In this document: positions 31,147-63,126 of the stretch, one piece after another | Numbering within the stretch: the stretch's first letter is position 1 | How the letters are laid out: every line of letters begins with the position of its first letter | IMG/VR virus record: IMGVR_UViG_3300045988_165550 | Span: 32,001-96,000 of that record | Length of the DNA: 64,000 nt | Strand: one strand, 5' to 3' | DNA from: a virus | Program-made: the position numbers and the translations under genes | The notes under the pieces: model-generated | The model's input: only the letters and a program-made list of their open reading frames with translations | Told to the model about the DNA's origin: nothing | The model's database searches: none

Positions 31147-31209
31147 AAAACGATTTTTTGTTGATTGTTTAGTTGTTAGTTTTTAAAGTTTTAGTTAATT
31201 GTTAGCAGG

Positions 31210-31241
31210 GCTGCTCCGCTGTGAAGCGTGGCAGCTTTTTT
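31210..31241 (+). terminator. Terminator after the tape measure gene
   Basis: Stem GCTGC..CGC / GCG..GCAGC with an internal 2x2 mismatch, followed by T6 (31236-41). A second perfect hairpin CTGCGGA-TTTCAAA-TCCGCAG lies at 31244-64. Confidence 0.55.
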
Positions 31242-31264
31242 GTCTGCGGATTTCAAATCCGCAG

Positions 31265-31987
31265 GAACGCCTAACGGACACAATTTCTTTTTGGTCCCAT
31301 TTTGCGACCAAGCCCATCATTTAGTGGGCTTTTGATAACTCGCTGATTTAGTGGGCTTTTTGGTCTCAAAAGCATATCTTTGTCCCATTTTTCCCCGAAA
31401 TTCACTACTATATATAAAAATTTCCGTGTATTTTTTCTTTTCCCTAAAATCAAAAACCCCTAACCTCAAACTAGAAGTTAGTAGCATTAACGGCTTTGCC
31501 GTAAACATCAGACAATAAGGTAGTTATGAGGATATAAGGGAGTGGCAGCTAGCGAGAGAAATGCAGGATTTTCTACATATTTTCTGCATATTCCAAATAT
31601 ATTTTTGCATTCCTGCGTACATTAGTTTATAGAAATTAATTAAAAAATGAGACCAAAAATAAGAAAATCGCTGAAAAACAAGCAAATAGCAAAAAATCGT
31701 AGGGGGCTAGCAGTGGGACAATGGTGGGTCAGCAGTGGGGCAAAATCCCTCATTTTCTTCATTAGGGGACTTTAACATTTCGCCCTTCAAAATAAAAATG
31801 GGACCAAAATGAGACTTTTGAGACCAAAATCGGAAGTTTGGTCCCATTTTTGAAAAAACATCCTTTTCGCTTCCGTTCCCAGCGATTCCGTCGCTGGTTT
31901 CCTCTCTCAAACCCATATTAAATGTTAAAAATATAACTTATTTCAAATATTATATAGATAACCTATATTCTTTTCGATTTATTTTTG
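31265..31987. repeat. Repeat-dense non-coding region; candidate replication origin or regulatory hub
   Basis: About 8 copies of TTTTGGTC(C/T)CA / TG(A/G)GACCAAAA, four in each orientation. These include a perfect 15-bp inverted pair, 31794-31808 and 31837-31851. Also present are 2x ATTTAGTGGGCTTTT, tandem TTTTCT(A/G)CATA and 2x AGCAGTGGG. There is no convincing ORF. Confidence 0.6.
31873..31897 (+). repeat. 25-nt hairpin element, copy 3 (intergenic)
   Basis: CCGTTCCCAGCGATTCCGTCGCTGG, about 90 nt upstream of the promoter box at 31988. Confidence 0.9.
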
Positions 31988-31995
31988 TATCTTTG
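31988..31995 (+). promoter_or_regulatory. Bacteroidota -7 box
   Basis: TATCTTTG, 36 nt upstream of the ATG at 32031. Confidence 0.6.
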
Positions 31996-32030
31996 CAGCA
32001 GTTTTAGAAAAGAAATATAATAGTTAAGGT

Positions 32031-41847: not shown

Positions 41848-41855
41848 TATTTTTG
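41848..41855 (+). promoter_or_regulatory. Bacteroidota -7 box for the LysR gene
   Basis: TATTTTTG, 49 nt upstream of the ATG at 41904. Confidence 0.55.
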
Positions 41856-45109: not shown

Positions 45110-45117
45110 TATCTTTG
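45110..45117 (+). promoter_or_regulatory. Bacteroidota -7 box
   Basis: TATCTTTG, 34 nt upstream of the ATG at 45151. A weak hairpin AAGCCTC/GAGGCTT lies at 45042-78. Confidence 0.6.
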
Positions 45118-45150: not shown

Positions 45151-45705
45151 ATGGCAAAGATTCAACCTCTTGCAGATTTCATTCTCTCCTTCGAGGGAGG
45201 TTACGTGAACCACCCCAACGATAAGGGTGGTCCTACCAACATGGGCGTAACATTGAAAACCTGGCAAACCCAAGGTTACGACAAGAACCATGATGGCCGC
45301 ATAGACGCAAAGGACGTGAAGCTTATCACAAAAGCCGATGCTATCTCCATCCTTCGCCGTTGCTACTGGAACCGATGGAAAGCCGATGGCATCAAAGACC
45401 AGAGCATCGCCAACATCCTGGTAGATTGGGTATGGATCAGCGGCACACCAGGCATCACCCTCGTACAGGCTATGCTGGGCGTAACCGCCGATGGTATCGT
45501 AGGCAACAAAACTCTCAAGGCGCTCAATAGCCAGAACCCTAAGCGGTTTTTCGAGCGCATCAAGGCACGCCGCAAGCAATACATCGCTAGAGTCATTGCC
45601 CTGTGCCCTAGTCAGAAGGGCTTCGAGGCAGGCTGGCTCCGTCGTCTCAATGCTATCAGTTACGGCAGTCTTATCTCCAATAATGGCAAAGAAATAAAGT
45701 GGTAA
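45151..45705 (+). CDS. Endolysin: GH108 lysozyme domain plus a PG_binding_3-type domain
   Basis: ILSFEGGYVNHPNDKGGPTNMGVT is the GH108 N-terminal signature. The length and C-terminal half fit the usual two-domain architecture. Confidence 0.85.
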   Translation: MAKIQPLADFILSFEGGYVNHPNDKGGPTNMGVTLKTWQTQGYDKNHDGRIDAKDVKLITKADAISILRRCYWNRWKADGIKDQSIANILVDWVWISGTPGITLVQAMLGVTADGIVGNKTLKALNSQNPKRFFERIKARRKQYIARVIALCPSQKGFEAGWLRRLNAISYGSLISNNGKEIKW

Positions 45706-46813: not shown

Positions 46814-46835
46814 TGATTATAAAAACAATAAGATT

Positions 46836-47207
46836 ATGGAAAGAAACAACCGACTGCCTAACGTGATATTCTTATCACCAAAGGCTTCTGAGATGATAGA
46901 AAGTTTGACAACAGAAGATGTAGTTTGTCTTGAGAATGAAGCAAATGGCATAAGCATCAAAAATGCGTCTTTTTGTGATGCCGACACGGATGAAACAGCA
47001 GAATATCGCAACATTATTCAACTATGGCACCCAGCCGAAGAGAAACCGCATTGCATAGGGTCGCTTCTTTGTTGGCGACGCGATGGCACTCATTTTGTGC
47101 ATGAACATTTCTCCCACGACGAACAGAACTGGCGAATGTTTATTAGCGAATACGACGTGAAGTGTTATTGTTATATCGCCAACTTGGAGCCTGACTCGTT
47201 CTCTTGA
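46836..47207 (+). CDS. Hypothetical protein
   Basis: 123-aa ORF with start context AAGATTATGG. Confidence 0.55.
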   Translation: MERNNRLPNVIFLSPKASEMIESLTTEDVVCLENEANGISIKNASFCDADTDETAEYRNIIQLWHPAEEKPHCIGSLLCWRRDGTHFVHEHFSHDEQNWRMFISEYDVKCYCYIANLEPDSFS

Positions 47208-47214
47208 TTTGTAT

Positions 47215-47355
47215 ATGGTTAGACAACAGCCTTTGAATGTTTGTATGGGGGGGGTGGCCGTAACACTAAATACTCGATACGAACGTTTGTGTGTAGAGCA
47301 TTTGATGTCTTTGGCTCATTTCCCAAGGACAGGAGTATTCATTGAGTATGATTAA
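47215..47355 (+). CDS. Possible small ORF (46 aa) containing a G8 tract
   Basis: My translation is MVRQQPLNVCMGGVAVTLNTRYERLCVEHLMSLAHFPRTGVFIEYD. It fills the gap between neighbouring genes. G8 is at 47247-54. Confidence 0.25.
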   Translation: MVRQQPLNVCMGGVAVTLNTRYERLCVEHLMSLAHFPRTGVFIEYD

Positions 47356-47361
47356 AGATTC

Positions 47362-47670
47362 ATGAGTCATAATACATTAAAAATAGAGAAGGATAAATTC
47401 AGAGAACACTCTGTAATTTTATCCCGTTCAACCGTAAGTGATACGGTTGTAATCAAGTGTGGTTCAGAAAGCGTGTGTCTTGAGCAAGACGAATTTAAAG
47501 TGTTGGCACATCTCATGTGCTACGATTTCTATACACGAGGTATGATCGAGGAAGCTCAAGAACATAGCCGGAATGATGTTCGTCCATATGATATATATTC
47601 TACTCCTGATATAGAAGGTTACGATGAGAAGATTAATTGGGATTTGGCTGTAGAAAATAACAGCAAATAA
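47362..47670 (+). CDS. Hypothetical protein
   Basis: 102-aa ORF. Confidence 0.5.
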   Translation: MSHNTLKIEKDKFREHSVILSRSTVSDTVVIKCGSESVCLEQDEFKVLAHLMCYDFYTRGMIEEAQEHSRNDVRPYDIYSTPDIEGYDEKINWDLAVENNSK

Positions 47671-47809
47671 CATTATGATTTGTCCCCTCAAAAACTATAA
47701 AAAACCATAACTTTACACTCAGAAACAAGAGAAATAGGTGTGCGTATATCGCCACCATTCTCTCTTTCAATCACATTCAGGATAACATATAAAAAAAAGA
47801 AACGCAAAA

Positions 47810-49627: not shown

Positions 49628-49648
49628 TTATAAACTATAAATTATAAA
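49628..49648 (+). repeat. Heptamer array D (3 units)
   Basis: TTATAAA CTATAAA TTATAAA fills the gap between the portal-like gene and the next ATG. The 20-mer TATAAACTATAAATTATAAA is identical to 21681-21700. Confidence 0.85.
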
Positions 49649-49650
49649 TT

Positions 49651-50826
49651 ATGATTATTTCCACCAACCAAGAATTGCGTTTGCACGTTCCAAGCAACGC
49701 AATCGACGATATAGCCACCATCCAGGGCATACTGGATAATAGCGAAAAAGATGTGCTGAAGGATAAGCTCGGCGCATCACTCTACAACCGCCTGTGTGAG
49801 GAATACAAGAAGCTCGACCCGCTCGATTTCTACAACCACGTGCAGGATGGTACCTATATCCAATATCCATGGGAAGAGCTTCTGCTGAATGCCCAGCGTG
49901 TAGTGGCTAACGAGGCGATGGCCCGCTTCGCCTATCAGCAGATTATCTCCATCAATGGTGCAGGAGTTAATATTGCTTCCAGCAACGACTATGATGCAGC
50001 CAGTGAAAAGCTGTTGGATAAAGGTGTAGCCGGATATAAGAAGGAAGCCCTGGTTTCCCTCAACAACCTTCTGCTCATGCTCGAAAACATGGCGAAGATG
50101 GCGAATACTCCGGCGGAAATCGTAGGCACGGATAACACGGATAGTGCAGATTCAGAAAGCCCCGAAGTACCAAAGGACGAAAGTACTGACGTACCAAAGG
50201 ACGATAGCACGAAAGGAGATGGCGATACAGAAGACCCTTCAACTCAGCCTACCAAGGAAGAAATTCACGCCGCCCTAGAGGATATTATCCTCCTGTGGCA
50301 GGAGAGCCGATATTACTATCTGCATCATGATCTCCTTATTCCGACCTGCGAAATCATGCAGCAGTATCTCGACATCTACGATAGTCGGGATAAGTTCATT
50401 CGTCTCATCCCCGATATGCTTTTCATTCAGAGTGAATATCTGGAAGAAGCGTTTGGCGAAGATTTTATTCCTCGTCTCTTGCAGGCCGACGAGAACGACA
50501 AGATGCTGAAGAAGGCACGCCAGCTTGTAGTGGCTTATCTCAAGGAGCGTACATCGGTTATCAGTTTTGATAAGCTGACTCGCTCCACGGCGCACAATGA
50601 TTCCATTACCGTAAGGGAAAGCATTCATCGGTTGCTGAAGAAAGAGGAAGCCGAAGCGCAAGCGAAACTCGATGCAGCCAAAGCTGATAGCGCCACAGAA
50701 GGCGGCTCCTCCTCATCGACGAGTAACGCCTCCAGTGCTTCATCATCGAATGACAAGGGCGGCAGCGAAGGCTACAACAACAACCAAAAAGGTTCTCGTA
50801 TCTTCGTAACCCCTATTCTGTGCTAA
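49651..50826 (+). CDS. Hypothetical virion-module protein with an acidic and Ser-rich tail
   Basis: 391-aa ORF. Confidence 0.7.
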   Translation: MIISTNQELRLHVPSNAIDDIATIQGILDNSEKDVLKDKLGASLYNRLCEEYKKLDPLDFYNHVQDGTYIQYPWEELLLNAQRVVANEAMARFAYQQIISINGAGVNIASSNDYDAASEKLLDKGVAGYKKEALVSLNNLLLMLENMAKMANTPAEIVGTDNTDSADSESPEVPKDESTDVPKDDSTKGDGDTEDPSTQPTKEEIHAALEDIILLWQESRYYYLHHDLLIPTCEIMQQYLDIYDSRDKFIRLIPDMLFIQSEYLEEAFGEDFIPRLLQADENDKMLKKARQLVVAYLKERTSVISFDKLTRSTAHNDSITVRESIHRLLKKEEAEAQAKLDAAKADSATEGGSSSSTSNASSASSSNDKGGSEGYNNNQKGSRIFVTPILC

Positions 50827-50868
50827 AAATATTCTTAATTTTCAAATAAACAACAAAAACAAGGATTT

Positions 50869-51984
50869 ATGGAAAATTTATCATTACAGGAAATCATCAA
50901 CATTTTGAAACCTGCCATCGGTGCAAGAATGCTTACCCAGGAGCAGAAAGATGCCTATGAGCAGGGATTGTCTCTCCTGGAAGGTGCAAGTAATGCACAC
51001 TCGTTTATCGAGAACTCACGTAAGTTTAAAGACTATCATCGCCGTACCCGACAGATGATCGCCTATCTGAATAGCTACAGCAGCTCTCAAGCCAACGCTG
51101 CATCATCATCTGCTGCCGACAAGCGACGTGTAGGTCGCCCAACCAAACAGGAACAGGAAGCCTATGCCGAACTTCAGAAAAAGAAAGCCATGGAAGAGGC
51201 GAAGCAGTCTCTCTTTCCTAATCTGAAGCCCGACACCACCGTGCAGCCGCTTACCTATAATGGTATCGTAGCCAACCCTAACGGCGAAAGTATCGCTGCT
51301 ACCATGCCCAACCTGATGCAGTTGCGTCCGTTCCTCTCTACTGCCCTTCAGGAGCAGGTGAACACCGTGCGTGACCTTCGTAGCGAGATGGCAAGCAAGG
51401 CAGAGCAGGCGAAGACCATGGCAGAAGCCAACGAGAAAGCTATCTCGCAGGGTAAAAGCGCCATCTATACCGAGGCTGAGATTGCCGAATTCGCCACAAG
51501 AGCCGTAGAAATCGAAAGCGATATTCTTCCGGAAATCTTTAAGGCTGTAGATAGAGAGATGGGCGAATGCTATCTGAGACTGAGCGAGAAGACTGGAGAC
51601 CCTGAATACATCGCTTACGCAAAGAAGGCCTTCACCATCGACCCTCAGACTCTCCGCACTCAGTTTAAGCCATTCTATGAAAAGGCATTAGCACGCGACC
51701 CTCTTTTTGCCGAGCAGGTAGCCGAGAAGATTGCCAACGACCGCCCAGAAGTAAAGGCAGCTCGTGATGCAGCCGCCAAGCACAAGGCTGAAGCCGATGC
51801 TCGCATCAAGTATATCCTTCGTAAGGATAAGCTATCTACCCAGACGAGAGTGAAAGGCATCAAGGAGCGCATAGACCAACTTCGCCAGGATTACTCTGAC
51901 ATCGTGACCGAAGAGGAGCTTTCCGGTTATGAAGCTATTCTCACAAAAACTATAGAAGAAGCCAAAGAGGATTCCGAAGCATAA
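50869..51984 (+). CDS. Hypothetical virion-module protein with an AT-hook-like motif
   Basis: 371-aa ORF containing KRRVGRPTKQE (GRP core). Confidence 0.65.
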   Translation: MENLSLQEIINILKPAIGARMLTQEQKDAYEQGLSLLEGASNAHSFIENSRKFKDYHRRTRQMIAYLNSYSSSQANAASSSAADKRRVGRPTKQEQEAYAELQKKKAMEEAKQSLFPNLKPDTTVQPLTYNGIVANPNGESIAATMPNLMQLRPFLSTALQEQVNTVRDLRSEMASKAEQAKTMAEANEKAISQGKSAIYTEAEIAEFATRAVEIESDILPEIFKAVDREMGECYLRLSEKTGDPEYIAYAKKAFTIDPQTLRTQFKPFYEKALARDPLFAEQVAEKIANDRPEVKAARDAAAKHKAEADARIKYILRKDKLSTQTRVKGIKERIDQLRQDYSDIVTEEELSGYEAILTKTIEEAKEDSEA

Positions 51985-51988
51985 AAAA

Positions 51989-52642
51989 ATGACAAAGAAT
52001 AAAGAAACCCCAGAACAGCGCACGCAGCGTTTTAAGACCCTGTGCGTCCATATCCTCTCCCAGAGCGGTAACTGCCAGGAATCTCAGCATGCTTTCAAAA
52101 GCACGCAGAGCATTCCCGAAATGTGCGAGGCGTGGCGCAAGTACTGGCACGGCTTAATCACCGAGGTTCCGCAGCAGGTAATCGATGCTTTCAAAGCCGT
52201 ATATCCGGAGTTTAAGGCAGATATTAACCAGGGCGGTATCTTCTATAATGAAGACTCGCCTACAGGTACCGTCCTTGTGGGTGATGCAGACGAGGAAATC
52301 CACCTCTACTCTTCCCGAAAGATATACGTCCTCGGCAAGGCGCACGTCATTCTCCATAATGCGGCTACCGCCATCGTGATGAATGAAGGCTGTAAGATAG
52401 AGTTATTGGATGGCAGCAAGGCAACCATCAAGGCAGGTTACGGAATCGCCCGGAATTATGCCCATCTGGTAACTTGCCAGGAAGCGGAATGCTACGACCA
52501 GAGTGTAGCCTTCATTACCGATGGCACCCTTCACGACCATGGGCATCAGAAGATCAATGCCTTTGGTACGGCAATGATAGATACCTTTACCCATCGCCTC
52601 ATAGATTTATATGATAGCGCCAGGATAGAAATCAGAAAGTAA
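51989..52642 (+). CDS. Hypothetical protein
   Basis: 217-aa ORF. Confidence 0.65.
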   Translation: MTKNKETPEQRTQRFKTLCVHILSQSGNCQESQHAFKSTQSIPEMCEAWRKYWHGLITEVPQQVIDAFKAVYPEFKADINQGGIFYNEDSPTGTVLVGDADEEIHLYSSRKIYVLGKAHVILHNAATAIVMNEGCKIELLDGSKATIKAGYGIARNYAHLVTCQEAECYDQSVAFITDGTLHDHGHQKINAFGTAMIDTFTHRLIDLYDSARIEIRK

Positions 52643-52666
52643 ATATCAGAAAATAGAAATCAGAAA

Positions 52667-55573
52667 ATGAACTCACATCTCTCTATATTAATCAATGATA
52701 AGCCTGTGGCGCTCCCCGATGATTTCTCTATAGATATAGAGGATCAGAACCCGGTATTCAACGATACGGAAATGTTCTCCTATCCCTTCTCTATCCCGCT
52801 AGACGGCAACCGCTGGCTAGTAAAGAACATCGAAGACGTTCACGCTGCTATGAAAGCCGTGAACATGGAGCACCTGCCTGTCAGAATCAATGCCGACGGA
52901 TTGCCATTCCGCAGCGGTACCCTGGTTATGCAGGATGGTGAAGAGATAACCAATTCTCTCTCTATGAGCATCGATGCCAGCACGCAGAGTTTCAGCGAAC
53001 TTATCAGCGACCTGCAATGCCGTGATATTCCGGTAAAGGACCAGCTTATCATCGGTGAGAAAATTGGTAATGTGAGGGTGGATATTTGGAGTAACCCGGT
53101 AGTAAAAGTCAACCTCCATTCCGATGGTAAGAAAGGTGGAAAGAATGCCACCGCCACCGTTACGACCGACCCATTGAGAGCTAGTAAGGTGCTGGAACCA
53201 CAGGCACTCGGTTTCTCCTATCCCGCAAGCTGCAAGGAATATACCTCTACTGATACGGCACACTATATCGGCGATGCCTACAACAAGAGTAAGAAATCTT
53301 ATTCTTCTGGTGCGATAACAATCAATGTACCGCAAGAGACTGCCAACGGCAACTATATTAATACCTCGGCAGCCTATGACGAGACGGATGGCGCTGGCAG
53401 ACCTGCTACCTACTGCAATGCCCGAATCTGTTACAAGCATCATGCCCTGGATGATGAAGGGAATACATCGAGTGACCTCATCAAAATGGATAAGTGCTCA
53501 TGGACGAATGAAGACCTCTATCCTTACTGGGTGTTGGATGCCAAACGTCCGCAATCGGGCATCTGCTTCTATGTACTCTATTTCCTCGACTGCCTCTTTA
53601 CCTATTTGGGTGTCACCTTCGATAAGGATGCGCTGATGGAGATAGAAGACTTGAAGCATCTCTGTTTTTTCACTACCGTTTGCAGTTATGATACCCTCGA
53701 GCATCCACACCACGGTAGTTATTACACTGCGAGTGAAATTCAGAAAGCAAAGGACATCGTGAATAAAGAGGGCTACGTAAAAGGCTCGAATCCTGAGATG
53801 GAAATCGTGGCTGCTAAATCCGTAGGCGAAATCAAGACGGGCTTCTTTAAGGATCAGAAGCATATCAATTCCTGGTTGGAGAGCCGTGGCTGCGGCGGTC
53901 AGATTGAAATCACCAAGGCAGAAGATAAGGACGTGCAGGAACTCGACCTTACGCTGACTGAAAACGGTGTGGCTACCACCCGCCATATCCAGGTGGGCGA
54001 GGTAGTTGCTTTTCCTCCTGGCAAGGGAATGAAAGTAACAGGTATCACCATCGAATCGAATATCAAGAAGTTTGAGGTGCAGGCAAACGTGCTCTATATG
54101 GTTGCCAACAGCGAGAATTTCCCTGACGAGAGCGTGAGCACTGTCATCTCTTCTCTAGAAAACGCATTCGGTATCAAGTTCTCCTACGATTACGAGCAGA
54201 AGAAGGTCACGGCTTATCTCACTCGCGACGTGATGCGAAAGAGCGGCAGAAAGACTAGGGATTTCCACTGCGAAATCCATTCGATGATTCCGATGACCGA
54301 GAAGATTACTGGTGTGCGTATGCGCTATTCAGCCGAGGAGGATGCTAAGGAACAGAAGAGTTATGTGCGCAACGCCAAAGGCGAATTAAAGGATTCCAGC
54401 TACGATACCGATTACAACTTCATCGACTATCCACTGCCCGATGGCGACACCAGCAAGATGGGTAGAACCGTCACCGATATGAAGTACATTGAGTTCTTCC
54501 ATAACATCCATAACCCTGGTGATAAAAACTGCTACATCGACCGCAACACCGGCAATGCCTATTGTGTAAAGGTCAACAAGGAGGCAAAGACTTCCAACGA
54601 GTTAAAGCCAGTACTCTTCGAGGTAGGTCAGTTCAAGGGTGTGGAATATGGAGATTGCAGTGAGGAGAATGAAGATTTCATACACGATATTTCCATTGAT
54701 TTCACTCCAGTACCTTTCAATGATGTGAATTATTTCAAGGAGGTAAAGGCAGCCTATGGTTCGCATACAGGTGACGTGACTGACTTTGAAGGCAAGCCTT
54801 TGCTAAAAAGTGTAGTGCAGATTACAGAGGCTCAGCAGCCCATCCTCTGCGCTTATGTAGATGAGGATATGGAGCACGAGTTTGTAGAGCAGGAAATCAA
54901 CCAGGTTATCTCCTCTGCCTTCTGCAATTACTATATGAAGCAGAAACTGAAGCTCGTGGAAAGCTACGACCCTTCTGGCACGGATGATGGCAACTCACCG
55001 TTGCAGGATAAATCACGATGGGGCTTTGCCCTGGCATTAATGCGTGGTGGCGGTAGCGATGCCACCCTGCAACCCTACGATTATAACTACGACCATTTCG
55101 GCACGTCAAAATGGCGAACCAATGCGGGACAGTATGCCCTGGCTTGCGACTCGCTGGATATGATGGGCAATGTGTTTGATTATAATGGTGTGCAGGAAGG
55201 TGTAGGCACCGGCGAACGTTTCTCGCTGAAGATACGTGCTTTCAAGGAACCATCGTGGCTGAAAGATCCGAAGTATAAGGATTTGGTACTCTGCAATGCC
55301 GATGAAGTAGATGAGAACGGCAAGGTGGTGACTAAAATCCGCTCCCGTGGCTTATTTGATACCTTCATTCTCCCATACGCCTATTTCCTTCTGAACAGAA
55401 AGAAGTTTATGGTGAGATGTACCACCACCGTAGCGCAAGTGGCCGATATACCGAATCACTGGCAGGATTGGTGGAATATAGGTGGCATGAAATGCCTCAT
55501 AGACAAGGTGAATACTACCATTGATGCCAAGACAGGCATGGGCGAAGTAGAGTTAACGGTATACGCTTTATAA
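52667..55573 (+). CDS. Large tail or baseplate protein (968 aa)
   Basis: Called on size and its position ahead of the fibre-like genes. I recognise no motif. Confidence 0.5.
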   Translation: MNSHLSILINDKPVALPDDFSIDIEDQNPVFNDTEMFSYPFSIPLDGNRWLVKNIEDVHAAMKAVNMEHLPVRINADGLPFRSGTLVMQDGEEITNSLSMSIDASTQSFSELISDLQCRDIPVKDQLIIGEKIGNVRVDIWSNPVVKVNLHSDGKKGGKNATATVTTDPLRASKVLEPQALGFSYPASCKEYTSTDTAHYIGDAYNKSKKSYSSGAITINVPQETANGNYINTSAAYDETDGAGRPATYCNARICYKHHALDDEGNTSSDLIKMDKCSWTNEDLYPYWVLDAKRPQSGICFYVLYFLDCLFTYLGVTFDKDALMEIEDLKHLCFFTTVCSYDTLEHPHHGSYYTASEIQKAKDIVNKEGYVKGSNPEMEIVAAKSVGEIKTGFFKDQKHINSWLESRGCGGQIEITKAEDKDVQELDLTLTENGVATTRHIQVGEVVAFPPGKGMKVTGITIESNIKKFEVQANVLYMVANSENFPDESVSTVISSLENAFGIKFSYDYEQKKVTAYLTRDVMRKSGRKTRDFHCEIHSMIPMTEKITGVRMRYSAEEDAKEQKSYVRNAKGELKDSSYDTDYNFIDYPLPDGDTSKMGRTVTDMKYIEFFHNIHNPGDKNCYIDRNTGNAYCVKVNKEAKTSNELKPVLFEVGQFKGVEYGDCSEENEDFIHDISIDFTPVPFNDVNYFKEVKAAYGSHTGDVTDFEGKPLLKSVVQITEAQQPILCAYVDEDMEHEFVEQEINQVISSAFCNYYMKQKLKLVESYDPSGTDDGNSPLQDKSRWGFALALMRGGGSDATLQPYDYNYDHFGTSKWRTNAGQYALACDSLDMMGNVFDYNGVQEGVGTGERFSLKIRAFKEPSWLKDPKYKDLVLCNADEVDENGKVVTKIRSRGLFDTFILPYAYFLLNRKKFMVRCTTTVAQVADIPNHWQDWWNIGGMKCLIDKVNTTIDAKTGMGEVELTVYAL

Positions 55574-55592
55574 CATAAAAAACAAAATAAAA

Positions 55593-56795
55593 ATGGATAG
55601 AAAAATATTGATTACCGGAACCGGTATCATTTCTGCCATGGGCAGAAATACCAGAGAAGTAGCCATGAACCTTTATAAAGGTAAATGCGGGTTGCATCAT
55701 AATGAATGCCGTGATAGCTATATCTCCGATTTATGTGGAGATGTTGAAAGCTGGGAAGTAGATTATGAGAAAATCCTTACTCATGCGCAATACGAGTGTA
55801 TGCCTCATCATGGTTTCTATGTGCTCGAAGCGGTATTTGAGGCGCTGAAGAAAGCGAAGGTCGGTAAGGAGTTCCTGGAAAAACATAACGTCTCCCTCAT
55901 AGTAAGCAATGATTCTGAGTGCTACGAGAGTAGACATGTAGTAGATCATGTGAACGAGGGCGACAATAATCGTTATTTGCCGGTAACAACCTTGTTTCAC
56001 TCGCTCAATTCTACTATCAGCATGAATCTGGCTACTATCCTCGGTATTCATGGCTTATCACTTACCGTGAGCGCAGCCTGTGCAGGAGGTGGCCACGCCA
56101 TCGGACTGGCAAAGATGTTGCTCGATAGCAAGCAGACTGAAATGGTAATTGTGATTGGTGCGCAGGAATGCGGATCTCAATACTGCATGGAAGCATTCGA
56201 TGCCCTCGGTGTCTTCTCACCCGATAAGGTGCAGCCATTCGGCAAAGGCAGAAACGGATTGGCACCATCGGGAGGTGCAGCCTGCATCGTCCTCGAACCC
56301 TCGGATAGTCTTCGTCTGAAAGAAGAGAAGGTGCCTTCCTTCGCTTCCCTTTCCGGCTATGGTTTCTCTACCAATGGAAAAGCTATCACTACCCCTGATA
56401 GCTATCAGGAGGAGGTATCTATGGTGAAAGCTATCGAGAACGCAGGATTGGACGAAGGCATGATAGATGTAGTTCTTGCCCATGCTACCGGTACCCCGAT
56501 GGGCGATGAAGCCGAGGCAAAGGCAATAGAGGGGATTTTCCCTATCTGCCCGAACGTAGTAGCTACAAAGGGCATGACAGGCCACGAGTGTTGGATGGCA
56601 GGTGTATCGCAAGCCGTACAAGCTACCATCATGCTTACCTATGGCCGTCTGCTCCATGCAGCCACCACCGAGGAGAACGCCTTCCCTCATCTTAACCTGG
56701 TGATGCGCCCTAAGTATTACGATCCTCATCATATTCTCTGTAATGCCTTCGGCTTTGGTGGTACCAATTCATCCTTTATCATCTCAAAAGCATAG
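55593..56795 (+). CDS. Beta-ketoacyl-ACP synthase, KAS I/II (FabF/FabB-like, Cys-His-His type)
   Basis: N-terminus KILITGTGIISAMG. Active-site Cys in LTVSAACAGGGHAIG. His motifs are VLAHATGTPMGDEAE and ATKGMTGHECWMAGV. C-terminus is NAFGFGGTNSSFIISK. Confidence 0.9.
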   Translation: MDRKILITGTGIISAMGRNTREVAMNLYKGKCGLHHNECRDSYISDLCGDVESWEVDYEKILTHAQYECMPHHGFYVLEAVFEALKKAKVGKEFLEKHNVSLIVSNDSECYESRHVVDHVNEGDNNRYLPVTTLFHSLNSTISMNLATILGIHGLSLTVSAACAGGGHAIGLAKMLLDSKQTEMVIVIGAQECGSQYCMEAFDALGVFSPDKVQPFGKGRNGLAPSGGAACIVLEPSDSLRLKEEKVPSFASLSGYGFSTNGKAITTPDSYQEEVSMVKAIENAGLDEGMIDVVLAHATGTPMGDEAEAKAIEGIFPICPNVVATKGMTGHECWMAGVSQAVQATIMLTYGRLLHAATTEENAFPHLNLVMRPKYYDPHHILCNAFGFGGTNSSFIISKA

Positions 56796-56797
56796 TT

Positions 56798-57043
56798 ATG
56801 AAAAAAGAAGAAATAACCTCTCGCATTATCACCATCGTGAACAGCCTGAAAACATCGTGGGTAAAACACGAAGTAACCCCTGACTCTAATCTCCGTGACG
56901 AGGTAGAACTGGAGTCTATTGACTTTCTCGATATGATCCAGCAGGTGGAAATGATGTTCCACATTAAAATCACCCCCGAAGAAGCGAAAGATTGTAAGCT
57001 CGTTTCCGATGTAGTCAATCTCGTAATTAAAAAGAAAGAATAA
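56798..57043 (+). CDS. Acyl carrier protein
   Basis: 81 aa. EVELESIDFLDMIQQVEMMFHIKITPEEAKDCKLVSDVVNLV matches the ACP helix II Ser-attachment motif (D/E-S-L/I-D) and overall pattern. It starts 2 nt after the KAS stop. Confidence 0.85.
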   Translation: MKKEEITSRIITIVNSLKTSWVKHEVTPDSNLRDEVELESIDFLDMIQQVEMMFHIKITPEEAKDCKLVSDVVNLVIKKKE

Positions 57044-57044
57044 T

Positions 57045-58103
57045 ATGGCACAGAAAATCACTCTCACATCGGGTTCCGTCTTTGCCGGAAATCCGATAAC
57101 TCTCGCTATTCAGCCTAATACGCTGACCTCGAAGCCTTCCTTCCATCGGGTTATCGTAGAAGTGTATTTTGACGATGGTACGGGCAGTTATGAAACTAAT
57201 AAACTCACCATCCCCGTTACCACAGAAAAAAGAGAAGTATCGCTAGATATCTCCTCTGCTCTCCGCATTTCGCTGGATAGTTACAAGTATACTGCCACCC
57301 CGTCCACCTACCCCGTGGTAAGCTGGTATGTAAAAGCCTACGATGAGTACATGGATAGCAACGGCGAAGTGCATACCAATGCGGGCGAAGTCTATTATCC
57401 TGCCGATGGTTCCAAGGATAGTACGAAAAATCTGCGTTGCATAGCCGGGGCCTTCAGCGATATAGAGCGATTAAAGGCAGGTGCGACCCAGTCAGTAACT
57501 CTTCTCTCCTGCAAACCTACAGACACCCACGAACTCGCCGTGGTAGGTGAAAGTTTCGTCTATCCCGTCTCCTATTCTGCAGCACAGAATCTCTTGGATA
57601 GCGCAACGCTCGAAGCCCCATCATCCGAGGAAGAGGAAATCACGCAGGAAGGTGCGCAAAGCATTCACGGACACCCCATCTATGCCCTGTCAGCCTCTGA
57701 AGCTGAAGACCGCACCACCTTCCGTTTCATTAACCGCTTCGGTTGTTTGGAGAGTATCAGTGTTCCGAAGTCTTATTCTCAGAAGATGAACGTAGAAACT
57801 ACGGAGTATACAAAAGCGATTCAGGAAACCTTTAATGAGTTCTCTCGTTCGGTTGTAGATAAGAAGAACGATAAAGAAGGCTGGCTTTTTCAAAGCGACC
57901 CTTTAACCGAAAAATGGCTGCGATGGTATTATCACGAGTTCTTGATGAGCAAGTACGTGTGGTTAAGGGCAAGCGGTATTTGGCTCCCTTGCACCATTGC
58001 CATGGAAGATGAGATCACCATCAAGGATAACACCAACAAAGTTATGCACTCAGTTTCCTTCACTGCAAAGCTCGGTATCAACGGAAACCCTTGTCCCTAC
58101 TGA
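57045..58103 (+). CDS. Hypothetical tail-module protein, translationally coupled to the ACP gene
   Basis: 352-aa beta-rich ORF. Its ATG is 1 nt after the ACP stop (TAATATG). Confidence 0.7.
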   Translation: MAQKITLTSGSVFAGNPITLAIQPNTLTSKPSFHRVIVEVYFDDGTGSYETNKLTIPVTTEKREVSLDISSALRISLDSYKYTATPSTYPVVSWYVKAYDEYMDSNGEVHTNAGEVYYPADGSKDSTKNLRCIAGAFSDIERLKAGATQSVTLLSCKPTDTHELAVVGESFVYPVSYSAAQNLLDSATLEAPSSEEEEITQEGAQSIHGHPIYALSASEAEDRTTFRFINRFGCLESISVPKSYSQKMNVETTEYTKAIQETFNEFSRSVVDKKNDKEGWLFQSDPLTEKWLRWYYHEFLMSKYVWLRASGIWLPCTIAMEDEITIKDNTNKVMHSVSFTAKLGINGNPCPY

Positions 58104-58118
58104 TAACCAAAAACCCAT

Positions 58119-58126
58119 TATCTTTG
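58119..58126 (+). promoter_or_regulatory. Bacteroidota -7 box
   Basis: TATCTTTG, 31 nt upstream of the ATG at 58157. Confidence 0.55.
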
Positions 58127-58156
58127 CCGTATAATCAATAAAATTCAAAAGAAAGA

Positions 58157-60286
58157 ATGGCAACAGAAGCAAAGACCACGAATTATTGGATTTCGAGCAC
58201 AGCCCTCTATATTCAGCTCAATGCGATGGGAGAACCCGACTACACGCAGTGCAGCGTGGCATCGGGGGCTTCCATCCTTTGCTACATGCAGGGCGTTAAG
58301 GGCTTGGAATACGACGCAGGGCACAACTACCAGCGGTGGCCGCTTGTAGCCTACCCTTCCATCTTCCCCGATAGCGAGAAGAAATATGTGTATGCAGCGA
58401 TACCCCGCAAACGCCTCTCGGATAACGACCAGGCTACCATCGTGTTTCCTAGTCAGCGTATTGACCTCTACGGAAAAGCCATTCTTACTACCCAAGGCGA
58501 AGATGGCTCAACAATAGAAACCGAAGGTGAGCAGATAGGTAATGAGCAGTTTTATTATATCTTCCTGCAAGGTATTATTTCGGAGGTAAAAACTGATAGC
58601 GACGGCAAAACTAGGATGCGAGAATGGCAGCAGCATGTAGACTGCGGCAGTCTTGCCACCGATGAAGCCCTGGCAAGCGGTGGAGAAGGTCAATGGTGGA
58701 AGTATAATAGCGTGAGCGATACCGTCACCTTCCTCAAGACCATTCAGAAGGCGGATTTCGAGGCACTGGCTGCCCAATCGGCTACCATCAACAAACTTAT
58801 CCTCGGCAAAAGCGAACTCACGGGCATAGCTACTGCCGAAACGCTAGAAAATAGCAACGACAAGGTGGTAACTCCTGTATACCTAGGCTTGTTTGGAGAA
58901 AGGCATTTCTTGTCGAAAGACAAAGATGATGTTGCTCATGGAACCATTACCTTTGAGAAGATACAGAAGTTTCTCGATGGTTTGATTGCTCAAAAAGAAT
59001 CAGGCTTTAAAGGTGGAGCCACTTTTGGAGAGTTTATTGAAGGCATTCTGTTCGGTACGGGTGCCCGAGTTGATTCCCTCGGAAATGCCGAGTTTGAAAG
59101 CATTACGTCCCGAAGCTCCATCATCGCCAAGGAACTTATCGTGAACCGACAGACTGCGATGGAGAGCAACTTTGTCTTTACGGAAAGCGGATTGGTGGAG
59201 AAGGTAACTGAGCATGCACCGGAAAGCGAAGGTGGCAATACAACTTACACACTCCAGCTCCAGAAGCGATGGGAGAACGATTTCACGGCATTCAAGGAGA
59301 ATGATGTGATATTAGCTTCTATCAATACGCTGCTGCAGGATGGCAAGTATTACGATATGTGGTTACGGGTACTTAGCGTGAATACGGTGAAGAATACCAT
59401 CGATGTGGTTTGTTATCCGAACAATGAGGTCCCTAGCAAGAAAAACTATCCTCCCTGCGAGCTCGCAAGACTGATCCGATGGGGTAATGCTACAGACAGG
59501 GACCGACAGAGTTGTTGGTATATTTCATCGTCCGAGGGCTTACTCGTCTGGCTCGACCACGTTACCAAGCCAATCATCGATAAGAGTAATTATTCCGTAG
59601 CTATCGGCAAGCTTCCCGATGCACTGTCGTTTATCTTTGCTGATTATCCTCTTGCCGACAAGCGCGACGGAGCTTTCTATGCCAAATATCTCGCCGTGCA
59701 GAACATTCTCCAAACCGACTACGAGGGCAATGTAAAGCAAAATGTGGTGGATAGGGGGAAATGGTCGCTGGAAACCGCCCAAGGCAACAATCCTTATCGG
59801 AGTACGAATACTGAGGTGCATGACGTATGGCACTACGGATGCCGATGGCGATGCTTGGTTGACAAGACCACGGATGAACCTAGATACGCCAGTACAGGAT
59901 GGGCGTTCGTGGAAGGCAACCCTGAGTTCTCTATTGACATATCATCTTCCAATGGCTTCCGTTTCTCGAAGAATTATATCTTCGGTTGCAGGGATGATCT
60001 TGGAGAATTGCGACCTTTTACTATCATCACGATAAGAGGTATTCTCTACAACAATGATGTGACGGAGCATTTAACCAATGTTGTATGGACCCGAGATACC
60101 GGCAATCCGACGGAAGATAACAGATGGGCGCAGCAGGTAGCGCAGCGTAAAGATCAGATTCATTTGCCACTCACGGGTAGCGACCTGGGCGACAACTGGG
60201 GCACCAACAATCCCTGCGTCTTTAAATGCTCGGCAGAAATCAAGGATGGAGAAGTTTTAACCTCAGAATACGAAATAGAATTTTAA
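58157..60286 (+). CDS. Tail fibre or spike-like protein (709 aa)
   Basis: Called on size and position in the distal tail module. Confidence 0.55.
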   Translation: MATEAKTTNYWISSTALYIQLNAMGEPDYTQCSVASGASILCYMQGVKGLEYDAGHNYQRWPLVAYPSIFPDSEKKYVYAAIPRKRLSDNDQATIVFPSQRIDLYGKAILTTQGEDGSTIETEGEQIGNEQFYYIFLQGIISEVKTDSDGKTRMREWQQHVDCGSLATDEALASGGEGQWWKYNSVSDTVTFLKTIQKADFEALAAQSATINKLILGKSELTGIATAETLENSNDKVVTPVYLGLFGERHFLSKDKDDVAHGTITFEKIQKFLDGLIAQKESGFKGGATFGEFIEGILFGTGARVDSLGNAEFESITSRSSIIAKELIVNRQTAMESNFVFTESGLVEKVTEHAPESEGGNTTYTLQLQKRWENDFTAFKENDVILASINTLLQDGKYYDMWLRVLSVNTVKNTIDVVCYPNNEVPSKKNYPPCELARLIRWGNATDRDRQSCWYISSSEGLLVWLDHVTKPIIDKSNYSVAIGKLPDALSFIFADYPLADKRDGAFYAKYLAVQNILQTDYEGNVKQNVVDRGKWSLETAQGNNPYRSTNTEVHDVWHYGCRWRCLVDKTTDEPRYASTGWAFVEGNPEFSIDISSSNGFRFSKNYIFGCRDDLGELRPFTIITIRGILYNNDVTEHLTNVVWTRDTGNPTEDNRWAQQVAQRKDQIHLPLTGSDLGDNWGTNNPCVFKCSAEIKDGEVLTSEYEIEF

Positions 60287-60297
60287 TTTTTTTAATT

Positions 60298-61482
60298 ATG
60301 GCTTTAGCAAGAAGTAACAGAAAGAAAATGGAGAAAGCTCCTGTCATTTACTCAATGCTCTGCAATATCGAAGTAATGGCAGATGGTTACACTCCTACTA
60401 CGCAGAATTACGATGCGGTCAGCGGAATCTTTTTTCCTGATTATTCGGCTTCGCCACTCAACCTTTTTCCTCGCTGCGTCTTGATTGATCCGGATTCGCC
60501 CGTAGCTTCCAAGACCTACAACAGTATGCTGAAATCGTTTGAGTGGTTTGAGGTGACGAAAAACGGAACGGTTTCCATCTATTCCAAGGGCGGTACGGTG
60601 GCTAGTGGCTACCAAGTGATTGCATCCGGCGACTACACGGGTCAGCTCGTCGTCAAGAAAAACGGTAAGGTAGGCGAACCGAGAGCTTTGCGATTCGTAG
60701 GTATCTACGAGGAGGACGGTTACACCTACAAATTCGACCGAAGTATTCCTCTTATCACGAATGATGTGACTCCGGCAGGTTCCGAACTGATGATTGATTC
60801 ACCTGCGGCACTCGCCTACAACCCTCTCCGTATGCCCGAGCAGCAAACCATCAACGTAACCGTTATCAAGGGTACCACGGATATAACGAACGACGAGCGA
60901 TGCAAGTTGATGTGGTATCGACGTGACGCAAGGGGGACGGAAACGCCGCTCACCGCCAACGCCGATTATGATAATATCGAGGTGGTTTCCGCCGTGAAGA
61001 GCAAAAACGGCAGTATCACATCGCTGGTTATCGACCGTGAACTGATTGGTGAAGGACAGACCTACGTAGTTTACGCCATGTTCCGGGCTGATAAGAAGTT
61101 CCCTAGCTCGCCCGAGCCTTCCGATTCACGAGCCTATACCACCATCAAGCGCCAGTTTCCGCCCCTTACGTGCATCATCCGTGGCGATGGTCTCCGTTCT
61201 ACGACGGATGCCAACTGCGTGAAGGCGATCGTAAGCGACAACCAGGGTGTACTCGACAACTGGAACAGATACCTTTACGCTTCATGGAAGGTGTCAGACG
61301 GAACCACGGAGATAGAAAGAGCACGCGGCGAAGAGGTGATGCTGCCTGCTGAATACGGCAAGGATTTCTTTTGCGATATTGAAGATAGAGGGACCAACAA
61401 GGTAATGGTTTCCGATACGGGTGAATGGCTTACCGATACCGATGGCAGCGTTATCATCACAAGAGATTACGAGGGTGATTGA
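60298..61482 (+). CDS. Tail-fibre-module protein
   Basis: Start trimmed to ATTATGG at 60298, just after the previous stop. The track start at 60226 would overlap by 61 nt. Confidence 0.6.
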   Translation: MALARSNRKKMEKAPVIYSMLCNIEVMADGYTPTTQNYDAVSGIFFPDYSASPLNLFPRCVLIDPDSPVASKTYNSMLKSFEWFEVTKNGTVSIYSKGGTVASGYQVIASGDYTGQLVVKKNGKVGEPRALRFVGIYEEDGYTYKFDRSIPLITNDVTPAGSELMIDSPAALAYNPLRMPEQQTINVTVIKGTTDITNDERCKLMWYRRDARGTETPLTANADYDNIEVVSAVKSKNGSITSLVIDRELIGEGQTYVVYAMFRADKKFPSSPEPSDSRAYTTIKRQFPPLTCIIRGDGLRSTTDANCVKAIVSDNQGVLDNWNRYLYASWKVSDGTTEIERARGEEVMLPAEYGKDFFCDIEDRGTNKVMVSDTGEWLTDTDGSVIITRDYEGD

Positions 61483-61532
61483 TACCTCGATATTTTTAAT
61501 ATTTAGTATTTAATGCTTAAAAGATACATATT

Positions 61533-62000
61533 ATGCCTTATTATGTTAAAGTAACAAAGAAGGTGAGAGAGGCATTGTTGCCTGCTTACCTGGTAGTGCA
61601 GAGAACCTTCGATGGTAATTATCTGCTTTTTCAGTCTGCTCTCTCTAAGGTAGAGGGTAATACACTCTCCGAAAGATGTGCCGCTGTGGGCGGTTCGCTG
61701 ATTACTCCTCTAGAGGTGGCTGGCGAGGTGAACGGCACAAGCTGCGCATCCTGCTACACCCCGAAGGAATATGGCGGAGACGAGGACGAGGACACTACTG
61801 AGGATTTCCGCCCAGGAGAGAACATTGAAGTCCTTCAGCCGGGAGAGAATGTTGAAGTTCCTCAGCCGGGAGAAAATTCTGAATCTCCAAAACCTGAGAA
61901 GAATACTGAAACCCCTACCCCATCGGAGACTGAAGCAGAGAAGAAAACAGAGTCAGAAACAGATAAAAAAGAAAGTGAGGTAACAGATGAGCAAAAGTAG
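61533..62000 (+). CDS. Small protein with an acidic repetitive C-terminus
   Basis: 155-aa ORF with four 9-aa repeats PGEN(I/V)EV.Q. Confidence 0.6.
   Translation: MPYYVKVTKKVREALLPAYLVVQRTFDGNYLLFQSALSKVEGNTLSERCAAVGGSLITPLEVAGEVNGTSCASCYTPKEYGGDEDEDTTEDFRPGENIEVLQPGENVEVPQPGENSESPKPEKNTETPTPSETEAEKKTESETDKKESEVTDEQK
61812..61919 (+). repeat. Four tandem 27-bp coding repeats
   Basis: PGENIEVLQ / PGENVEVPQ / PGENSESPK / PEKNTETPT, in frame with 61533-62000. Confidence 0.85.
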
Positions 62001-63126
62001 TGCAACCTTCAGAATTATCAGCATCTCGAATGGTAAGACTTATTACACCATCATGCAGTGTGACCAGGGCGATATTAACCAGTTCTATGATGATAGCGGT
62101 GCAGTGTTCCCTACCTTTGGAGGAACTAACTGCCCTACGGTGATATTCCTGGTTTATGATTCAGAGAATAGTGCCAAGTCTATCGTGGTGCCTGATGCCA
62201 ACATCAAGTGGTTTGTGAATGGCGTGGAACTCGCCTTCTCCGGACAGATTTCTACCAACAAATTCAACGGCAGCGAAACCGGTCATTTCAAGCGCATCAC
62301 CAAAACCATTAACGGTGTAAACATCCAGTGCCTTCAGATTATCAAGAATCTGACGGGCATTAACAGTAGAAGTTCATTTGCCATCACTGCCACCGCTACG
62401 GGTTTGGTAGAGAATACAAGCACCGAACTTTCCGCCCAGTTCCCTGTGACTATTGCCTATGGTGATACATCATCCAAGAAAGTAAGAATCCAGTCTCCTG
62501 CCAGCTATAAGGGTACTCCTTTCACCATTGAGGCGAGAGGTGGACAATGCCAGATTCAGGCCGTGGTTGTAACAAACTCGGGCGAAGGCTTCACGGTGGA
62601 TGGCTATTTCTTTGAATGGTTCCAGCAGAAGGACGGCGCATGGACGAACCTTAATACTGATTCGGGGGCACATACGCTTACCGTATTGGAGACGATGGTT
62701 AACGGCAGTGCGTTGTTCATGTGCAAGGTGTATAGCGACGCAGGTAAACAGAATCTCTATGGCACGGATATTTGTAGCGTCAATGATATTTCCGACCCTT
62801 GGCAGGTTTTCCCTAACCCTGTGGCTAGCGAGACGAGCGACAAGCCTGCTACGCTGGTCTGCGTAAAGGGGAGCGGTATAGCTGCTGTCTTCAAGCCTTA
62901 CGTTAAATCAGGTTCCAACAAGCTTGCCGCTGACAAATGTTCATTCACCATGGGCTTGTTTAATTCAGCAGGAACCAAGCTCAACGGAAAAGATTCGGCG
63001 GGCTACAATCCTCCGTTCCTTGATTCCGATAAGAAGACGGTTTTCGTGATTCCGGAGCCGTTTATCTCAGACAATGGTGGTATTGACGGCGAGATTGTCT
63101 GTGAGATTACCGAAACTCAAAAATAG
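61987..63126 (+). CDS. Tail-fibre-module protein (beta-rich, Ig-like character)
   Basis: 379-aa ORF overlapping the previous gene by 14 nt. Confidence 0.6.
   Translation: MSKSSATFRIISISNGKTYYTIMQCDQGDINQFYDDSGAVFPTFGGTNCPTVIFLVYDSENSAKSIVVPDANIKWFVNGVELAFSGQISTNKFNGSETGHFKRITKTINGVNIQCLQIIKNLTGINSRSSFAITATATGLVENTSTELSAQFPVTIAYGDTSSKKVRIQSPASYKGTPFTIEARGGQCQIQAVVVTNSGEGFTVDGYFFEWFQQKDGAWTNLNTDSGAHTLTVLETMVNGSALFMCKVYSDAGKQNLYGTDICSVNDISDPWQVFPNPVASETSDKPATLVCVKGSGIAAVFKPYVKSGSNKLAADKCSFTMGLFNSAGTKLNGKDSAGYNPPFLDSDKKTVFVIPEPFISDNGGIDGEIVCEITETQK

Follow-up and report, generated by a model that had tools for sequence, protein, structure and literature searches.

The 64,000-nucleotide stretch of phage DNA described here (positions 32,001 to 96,000 of IMG/VR record IMGVR_UViG_3300045988_165550; the window below) encodes a ketosynthase (KS) followed directly by an acyl carrier protein (ACP), both positioned among genes of the tail module. 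Judged by its sequence, the KS is a member of a phage-specific clade, neither an enzyme of the FabB/FabF type nor a recent capture from a host, and the KS–ACP pair looks catalytically competent. By ancestry or affinity, the pair appears to belong with the ketoreductase (KR)–KS–ACP core of the flexirubin/aryl-polyene-type clusters of Bacteroidota, which are similar to type II polyketide synthases (PKS). The interpretation that we favour, and hold to be on balance probable, is that of a functional, late-expressed and host-dependent module that may build a specialised acyl or polyene chain for envelope chemistry in the infected cell. The features discussed below are collected in Table 1.

The ketosynthase and its carrier protein

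Both parts of the KS are recognised by Pfam profiles (ketoacyl-synt N, 1.4e-26, 94.1 bits; ketoacyl-synt C, 1.1e-17, 64.6 bits), as is the ACP (PP-binding, PF00550, 8.4e-7, 29.6 bits), with all three matches above the gathering score of 20.8 that applies to each of these families. The best matches of the KS among the solved structures in the PDB are FabB and FabF. In the alignment with the FabB structures, residues Cys163, His297, Lys326 and His331, the pair Thr299/Thr301, and the gating residues Phe388 and Asn392 all fall on the catalytic positions. The triad Cys163/His297/His331, the lysine, the threonine pair, and the gate residues are invariant in 57 distinct homologues. The ACP matches phrog_5934 ('acyl carrier protein') as well as ACP structures in the PDB, and its Ser40, invariant in 44 distinct ACPs, is aligned with Ser36 of E. 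coli AcpP.

Purifying selection acts on both genes, with ratios of nonsynonymous to synonymous substitution (dN/dS) of 0.09–0.14 for the KS and 0.06–0.13 for the ACP that do not differ from those of the flanking genes, and the GC content and codon usage of the pair also match those of its flanks. An earlier note on this DNA had placed the two open reading frames (ORFs) exactly where they are listed in Table 1 and had read in them the hallmarks of a Cys-His-His condensing enzyme and a carrier protein that keeps its phosphopantetheine-attachment helix. The profile searches and the active-site alignment bear this out, with the cysteine, both histidines and the gate correctly placed, and with neither these residues nor the serine of the ACP substituted in any of the homologues compared.

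The scores against the NCBIfam equivalogs are far from those of the housekeeping enzymes. The KS reaches 171.7 bits against the FabF equivalog TIGR03150 (cut-off 493.75) and 164.2 bits against the FabB equivalog NF005935 (cut-off 630), and the best score of the ACP against the ACP equivalogs (48.2 bits, cut-off 66) stays below every one of them. No PHROG family was matched by the KS.

Phylogenetic position and cellular relatives

Homologues of the KS number in the thousands in the protein database. In an exhaustive search of 1.8 billion representatives, identity falls sharply from the family (61%) to at most 44%, and canonical FabB is 25–28% identical. Among the matches listed, the best cellular relatives in GTDB species genomes are 34–40% identical to the KS, never more than 40%, and all of them come from Bacteroidota. 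In a neighbor-joining (NJ) tree, the phage KSs form a clade of their own in 199 of 200 bootstraps and the KSs of the Bacteroidota clusters another one (200/200), both of them apart from FabB (100/100). The choice between a recent capture and a phage clade, for which the earlier note had asked for a phylogeny, thus falls to the phage-specific clade. The signature GHECWM, located after the second catalytic histidine, is common to the Bacteroidota cluster KSs and the phage KSs. The label of ketoacyl-ACP synthase used earlier stands insofar as the condensing enzyme is intact, but the protein is not of the FabB/FabF type, its nearest cellular relatives being the KSs of Bacteroidota flexirubin/aryl-polyene clusters.

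The gene clusters in which these cellular relatives are found are of the flexirubin/aryl-polyene type. In Chryseobacterium (L200) and Alistipes (L204), the gene order is aromatic ammonia-lyase (TAL), KR, KS, and ACP, and the Chryseobacterium cluster continues with an LpxL-type acyltransferase and an FAD oxidase. A contig of pig-gut Bacteroidales (L070) carries KS, ACP, ApeP, ApeI, MMPL, an oxidase, KR, LolA, and 4HBT. Among the matches listed, gut Bacteroidales with such clusters include Alistipes, Prevotella, and B. fragilis, so that plausible hosts would have the helper enzymes to offer.

Conservation and gene contexts in phages

In IMG/VR, 63 loci with this KS were found; their contigs, which reach about 111 kb in length, come mostly from human-gut samples. 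The window had no match by DNA similarity among GenBank phages, and an assignment to the crAss-like phages was rejected on account of its 2095-aa tape-measure-protein-like (TMP-like) product. For an unbiased test of presence, loci were fetched through the neighbouring gene for a 968-aa protein, not through the KS. The KS and ACP genes lie right behind the homologue of that gene in 56 of 56 loci with at least 69% identity and enough sequence (the core family), and in none of the 18 loci from sister lineages, in which the 968-aa protein is 44–47% or 27–28% identical. The order of 968-aa protein, KS, ACP, 352-aa protein, and fibre-like protein persists even where the KS is only 58–64% identical.

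A first motif census had left the sister genomes without a KS, which proved wrong, since the motif had missed GHECWMSG and a permissive scan found the KS on the same contigs. The KS of the sister lineages is 39–40% identical, with every catalytic motif present, and the order there is TMP-like gene, ACP, KS, small ORF, primase, and ThyX. In loci L470 and L482, the ACP–KS pair is placed directly behind the TMP-like gene, with one extra gene between the latter and the ACP in L062, and L279 has the order ACP, KS, 105-aa ORF, TMP-like gene. In L065, the order is sliding clamp, methylase, ACP, KS, and primase, and in L069 it is lysin, KR, KS, and ACP. The ACP adjoins the KS in every phage context examined.

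Since the sister lineages carry ACP–KS behind the TMP-like gene and the core family carries the pair elsewhere, the cassette is old across the whole group of ~100-kb phages, and the ancestor of the core family relocated it and reversed the order of its two genes. Most lineages have it inside the tail module or at its edge. The flank formed by the genes for the 968-aa and 352-aa proteins is specific to the core family, because the neighbours differ in the sister lineages and in L065. Of the synteny proposed for checking, the flank itself is fixed across the core family (56/56), but the exact neighbours change beyond it. The cassette can therefore be described as conserved and not host-identical, given the 56 core loci, the sister lineages, and the identity of at most 44% outside the family.

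In the sister lineages, the cassette occupies the interval from the TMP-like gene to the primase gene. The corresponding slot of the window was searched by tblastn for a leftover KS or ACP pseudogene, and none was found. Hairpin mini-elements (CTGCGGATTTCAAATCCGCAG, CCCAGCGATTCYRTCGCTGG) and tandem repeats of the form (GGTAAAAA)n recur in intergenic spacers. Sites of the mini-elements are this slot in the window, about 9880–10000 and 11210–11292 in L005, and 11210–11572 in L032. They occupy the slot between the TMP-like and primase genes and surround the KS and ACP genes in relatives, and one insertion is flanked by a duplicated 3' end of the gene for the 968-aa protein.

Gene packing and the predicted transcription unit

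In the window, the gene for the 968-aa protein is separated from the KS gene by 19 nt, the KS stop codon from the ACP start codon by 2 nt (TAG TT ATG), and the ACP stop codon from the next ATG by 1 nt (TAA T ATG). The tight translational packing pointed out earlier is thus present in the window, but it is not conserved, as the KS–ACP gap ranges from −4 to +83 nt among the relatives and reaches 363 nt in one of them. The longer spacers of the relatives contain hairpin or tandem-repeat mini-elements but no promoter box. The 120-nt spacer ahead of the KS in relatives was considered as the site of a promoter and contains none; it is a hairpin mini-element bordered by a short duplication.

Bacteroides-type −7 boxes (TAnnTTTG) are absent from all intergenic gaps between 49.6 and 58.1 kb, and sigma-70-like and terminator-like matches are no commoner than in the shuffled background, in agreement with the earlier view that no promoter or terminator separates the pair from its neighbours. 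From the distribution of the boxes, we infer that KS and ACP are transcribed late, within a lysis/tail unit extending from about 45.1 to 58.1 kb, and another transcription unit probably begins immediately upstream of the gene for the 709-aa protein (58157). The pair has neither its own promoter box nor the patchy presence of a phage moron, being found in 56 of 56 core genomes and in the sister lineages. The expectation that it is expressed with the tail genes rather than as an isolated moron fits the missing box and its position among tail-module genes, with the amendment that the predicted unit also starts with an endolysin.

Intergenic TAnnTTTG boxes on the + strand are located just upstream of gene or operon starts at 146/154, 15586, 18596, 22915, 31980/31988, 37721, 41848, 42823/42949, 45110, and 58119. 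Such boxes help to define the transcription units and support a Bacteroidota host.

Partner enzymes and host

No Pfam match to a phosphopantetheinyl transferase (PPTase), FabD, KR, dehydratase (DH), or thioesterase (TE) was found among the 51 other genes of the window, nor were such enzymes found among the 49 genes outside the window in a relative of 106,454 bp. The latter search covered 42 kb of the relative, with a 2-kb gap, bringing the total to ~104 kb of a genome type of ~106 kb. Since no partner enzymes were found in these ~104 kb, host enzymes would be needed, as the earlier note had concluded for the window. Nor was there a match to a second KS that could be a chain-length-factor paralogue, whether in the window or elsewhere in this genome.

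The host is probably Bacteroides-like. This is indicated by the C-terminal 420 residues of the 709-aa protein, 41–44% identical to tail proteins of the cultured Bacteroides phages BS-TP2, F1, F2, and F4, by the intergenic TAnnTTTG boxes that precede operon starts, and by translation starts that are A-rich and devoid of Shine-Dalgarno sequences.

Comparison with known systems

The KS–ACP core of the Bacteroidota flexirubin/aryl-polyene clusters shares with the phage pair the adjacency of the two genes, the GHECWM signature, the Cys-His-His triad, and an identity of 34–40% (among the matches listed), and its KR is positioned upstream of the KS, as it is in the phage relative L069. The clusters differ in having an ammonia-lyase, a KR, ApeI/ApeP dehydratases, an acyltransferase, MMPL/LolA export proteins, and a thioesterase, none of which turned up in the window or elsewhere in the relative's genome. 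Their KSs differ as well, since the phage KSs form a separate clade (199/200) and the core family has lost the aspartate of the RDG motif.

The closest described functional analogue of the phage KS is ApeR, a homodimeric FabB-like KS encoded beside a KR in the aryl-polyene clusters of proteobacteria, which is reported to make short polyenes in vitro (PMC8358021). Like ApeR, a homologue of which is represented by PDB entry 4EWG, the phage KS is a single, stand-alone FabB-like enzyme with a dedicated ACP. However, the phage has no ApeO/ApeC partner, and its KS matches 4EWG (4.9e-21) less well than it matches FabB (about 1e-35 to 1e-39). FabB and FabF with AcpP have in common with the phage proteins the fold, the catalytic triad, the lysine, the threonine pair, and the GFGG gate, whereas the phage pair is set apart by its low identity (25–28%), by the replacement of two aspartates, by Glu-Ser for Asp-Ser in a private ACP, and by the absence of a fab operon.

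Genes of fatty acid synthesis are known from phages as auxiliary genes, with the arrangement fabG-acpP-fabF reported in predicted roseobacter prophages (PMC8224337). These genes and the ACPs of phrog_5934 resemble the cassette in that they are found on phage contigs with an ACP, with or without a KS, and depend on host enzymes. Those of the predicted prophages differ in their host-like order and sequence, whereas the KS of the window has no PHROG family and falls within a phage-specific clade, and the cassette has persisted despite genome rearrangements. Phage ACPs and fab-like prophage genes are thus already listed as auxiliary metabolic genes, and this KS clade is distinct from them. A minimal type II PKS is similar to the cassette in combining a KS with a dedicated ACP and in taking FabD and PPTase from elsewhere, but it contains a pair of KS-alpha and chain-length factor, and the phage has a single KS gene. 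The 'Flandersviridae', a group of gut phages, carry genes of the isoprenoid pathway, with no mention of acyl, ketoacyl, or polyketide genes (PMC8008677). They provide a precedent for lipid-biosynthesis enzymes in gut Bacteroidales phages, although both the pathway and the phage group are different. The literature searched contained no account of the pair, of this KS clade, or of a placement in the tail module.

Proposed mechanism and alternative explanations

In the mechanism that we propose, the pair would be transcribed late as part of the lysis/tail unit, and the apo-ACP would be phosphopantetheinylated at Ser40 by a host PPTase and loaded with malonate by host FabD. The KS, presumably of the homodimer type, would accept an acyl or aryl primer on Cys163 and condense it decarboxylatively with malonyl-ACP, a step that is postulated because the catalytic machinery is intact. 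Reduction and dehydration would be carried out by host FabG/FabZ or by the KR and DH of a host cluster of the aryl-polyene type. The outcome would be a specialised acyl or polyene chain on a carrier invisible to host regulation, most likely destined for the cell envelope.

Several observations speak against this mechanism. The KS core family has Asn, Ser, or Thr in place of two aspartates that are near-universal in FabB/F (those of RDG and of SDG in loop 2), and their loss might alter the gating or the activity of the enzyme. The attachment motif in the 44 aligned ACPs is Glu-Ser-Ile (Glu-Ser-Leu in one member) instead of the canonical Asp-Ser-Leu, so that, with Glu in place of Asp before the serine, recognition by a host PPTase can only be presumed; in the sister lineage L470, the motif of the ACP is Asp-Ser-Ile. 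The phage clade is placed as the sister of the Bacteroidota cluster KSs in only 105 of 200 NJ bootstraps, and the assignment of the host is an indirect one. Finally, no acceptor or transferase emerged.

The alternative that survives best is directed at the tail, with the chain moved from the phage ACP to the TMP-like, 968-aa, 352-aa, or a fibre protein, or with acyl-ACP docking as an assembly cofactor, in either case to aid membrane penetration or adsorption. We regard it as unlikely. It would account for the fact that the cassette adjoins tail-module genes in most phage contexts (the genes for the 968-aa and 352-aa proteins in 56/56 loci; the TMP-like gene in L470, L482, L062, and L279), that it is again found within the tail module after its relocation, and that it has no promoter box of its own. 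The pair of L065, however, lies between methylase and primase genes and that of L069 beside those of a lysin and a KR, the immediate neighbours vary by lineage, and the ends of late operons are the usual site of cargo genes as well. The acylation of a tail or fibre protein, suggested in the earlier note, also finds no support in the module itself, which lacks an acyltransferase and a lipobox-type feature, the sole located GNAT protein being encoded 48 kb away, and the flanking proteins matched no known family. Slightly less likely still is the specific claim that the tail itself is the target of an acyl or polyene chain built on the private ACP, whether by covalent lipidation of the TMP-like or a distal tail protein or by docking of acyl-ACP as an assembly cofactor. 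If it were true, a lipid anchor on the injected tail proteins would help them to cross the Bacteroidota envelope, a post-translational chemistry of the virion that has not been described for tailed phages.

It is improbable that the pair is a generic booster of fatty acid synthesis, that is, a FabB/FabF-like auxiliary gene with a spare AcpP that sustains the late synthesis of membrane lipids. Although FabB and FabF are the best PDB matches of the KS, phage ACPs are filed as auxiliary metabolic genes (phrog_5934), and fabG-acpP-fabF is present in the predicted roseobacter prophages (PMC8224337), the KS is only 25–28% identical to FabB, both proteins score below the equivalog cut-offs, and the nearest relatives are found in pigment-type clusters and not in fab operons. 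In addition, that the ACP is private and its recognition motif altered speaks for insulation from the fatty acid synthesis of the host rather than for its reinforcement.

A comparably low probability is assigned to a factor of the carrier state or of lysogenic conversion, in which the phage would be maintained as a phage-plasmid and envelope pigments or lipids of the carrier would be remodelled by the pair, for instance for protection against oxidative stress or for superinfection exclusion. In bacteria, the products of aryl-polyene and flexirubin clusters are envelope-bound, relatives of the phage encode ParA and a Rep3-type initiator, and a LysR regulator is present in the window, all of which would fit such a role. 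Against it stand the embedding of the pair in late genes and the lack of an independent promoter box before it, which holds for the window as well as for the relatives with their 120-nt spacers.

That the pair is host cargo of recent capture, or a remnant that is decaying or no longer catalytic, is a very remote prospect, for which only the general frequency of cargo in metagenomic phage contigs and the many GenBank 'phage' FabF matches that look like host DNA could be adduced, and it is refuted by the identity of at most 44% outside the family (1.8 billion representatives) and at most 40% to GTDB genomes (among the matches listed), the invariant catalytic residues, a dN/dS of about 0.1, a composition like that of the flanks, and the retention of the cassette in lineages that share only 45% identity in their structural genes.

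Neighbouring genes and other features of the window

The placement of the cassette in a tail or baseplate operon, as described in the earlier note, is in line with the tail-module genes around it, but no search confirmed that the 968-aa protein is 'baseplate-like'. Neither this protein nor the 352-aa protein has a match in Pfam, PHROG, the PDB, or the GenBank phages, the putative capsid protein likewise had no tblastn match in the latter, and sequence and profile searches of the PDB with the 968-, 352-, 709-, and 605-aa neighbours returned nothing usable. The AlphaFold2 (AF2) models of the 968-aa and 352-aa proteins were built from shallow, family-only alignments and were of poor quality (see Table 1 for the predicted local distance difference test, pLDDT). 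With the model of the 352-aa protein, Foldseek retrieved uncharacterised proteins of Bacteroidota phages with template-modelling (TM) scores of at most 0.34, except for one relative that is 48% identical, and these matches were not used as evidence.

That both proteins belong to the tail module is suggested by the gene order in sister genomes (968, g45707, g47810, 352, g22969, g23673), which links them to the TMP-like gene, which in the window is directly preceded by g22969 and g23673. In the window, the TMP-like gene is separated by ~14 kb (primase, ThyX, head genes, LysR, and endolysin) from the rest of the tail module at 45707–63126, whereas the tail-module genes are contiguous in sister genomes (L328), and the module has therefore been split and shuffled between lineages. 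The gene that follows the one for the 352-aa protein is hypervariable, encoding 709 residues here and 2282 in many relatives (L003/L067, 12823–19671), with only the N-terminal part conserved, a variability typical of the swapping of receptor-binding modules. The genes at 60226–61482 and 61987–63126 match the 'tail protein' family phrog_3267, and a 155-aa product encoded among the fibre-like genes (61533–62000) has an acidic repetitive tail of PGEN-type repeats (EVLQPGENVEVPQPGENSESPKPEKN) and no family match.

The endolysin (GH108 and PG_binding_3; 45151–45705) is placed between the head genes and those of the tail module, and a holin-family match is present among the 51 scanned genes. A full-length LysR-family regulator (HTH_1 and LysR_substrate; 41904–42809), with its own −7 box at 41848, is located between the head genes and the lysis/tail genes. 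A GNAT acetyltransferase at 7826–8401, 48 kb from the cassette, adjoins a weak radical-SAM match (7196–7813); a second GNAT was reported by the bulk scan, and its position was not located. Another weak radical-SAM protein (10080–11066), which also has a PADLOC match to a DRT-associated DUF1848 (1e-6), is encoded by a gene conserved near those of primase and ThyX in sister genomes. PADLOC gave no match for the KS, the ACP, or their neighbours, and membership in a defence system was rejected. A 525-aa protein similar to HNH/homing endonucleases (18628–20205) contains four DUF4379 treble-clef zinc-finger repeats and an MTES_1575 REase domain. There are no tRNA genes in the window.

Outside the extent of the window, the relative IMGVR_UViG_3300045988_167459 (L194, L149) encodes ParA (AAA_31/CbiA), a Rep3-type initiator, and a sliding clamp, as well as a diversity-generating retroelement (reverse transcriptase and bAvd). 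These genes suggest the lifestyle of a phage-plasmid with such a retroelement.

Table 1. Coordinates of the cassette, its key codons, and associated features in the window, with the basis of each assignment
Feature	Coordinates	Strand	Basis
Ketosynthase (KS), 400 aa, phage-specific clade	55593..56795	+	Pfam, FabB-like alignment, homologues, dN/dS
Codon of active-site Cys163 (AACAGG motif)	56079..56081	+	Aligned with the FabB catalytic Cys; invariant 57/57
Codon of catalytic His297 (HATGTP), followed by Thr299 and Thr301	56481..56483	+	FabB alignment; invariant in the family
Lys326, His331, Glu332, Trp334: catalytic Lys/His (KGMTGHE) and clade signature GHECWM	56568..56594	+	Family-invariant
GFGGTN gating loop (Phe388, Asn392)	56754..56768	+	Invariant 57/57
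Acyl carrier protein (ACP), 81 aa	56798..57043	+	PF00550, phrog_5934, PDB ACPs, dN/dS
Codon of Ser40 (LESID), predicted 4'-phosphopantetheine site	56915..56917	+	Invariant in 44 distinct ACPs
968-aa tail-module protein, fold not recognised	52667..55573	+	No Pfam/PHROG/PDB match; AF2 pLDDT 30
352-aa beta-rich protein	57045..58103	+	No family match; AF2 pLDDT 54
Intergenic Bacteroides-type −7 box (TATCTTTG), upstream of the gene for the 709-aa protein	58119..58126	+	TAnnTTTG scan
709-aa tail fibre or receptor-binding-type protein	58157..60286	+	C-terminal similarity; hypervariable
Bacteroides-type −7 box before the endolysin gene; nearest intergenic one upstream of the KS	45110..45117	+	TAnnTTTG scan
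Endolysin, first gene of the predicted KS–ACP unit	45151..45705	+	phrog_315, 1.3e-36
TMP-like protein, 2095 aa	24859..31146	+	PHROG TMP families, PF10145
Slot between TMP-like and primase genes, cassette site of sister lineages	31147..32030	.	Hairpin mini-elements and a double −7 box

Significance

The KS clade is essentially restricted to phages, is always accompanied by its own ACP, and appears to have an origin of the pigment/polyketide type rather than in housekeeping lipid synthesis. In an abundant family of human-gut phages of ~105 kb, the cassette has survived intact both deep divergence and a genomic relocation, which points to a hitherto uncharacterised, phage-directed chemistry of specialised lipids or polyenes in gut Bacteroidales. 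With its two genes, it is also a compact system in which to study how a virus connects a carrier protein of its own to the fatty acid or polyketide synthesis machinery of its host. If the product modifies the virion tail or the host envelope, a principle new to phage adsorption, ejection, or exclusion would be at work.

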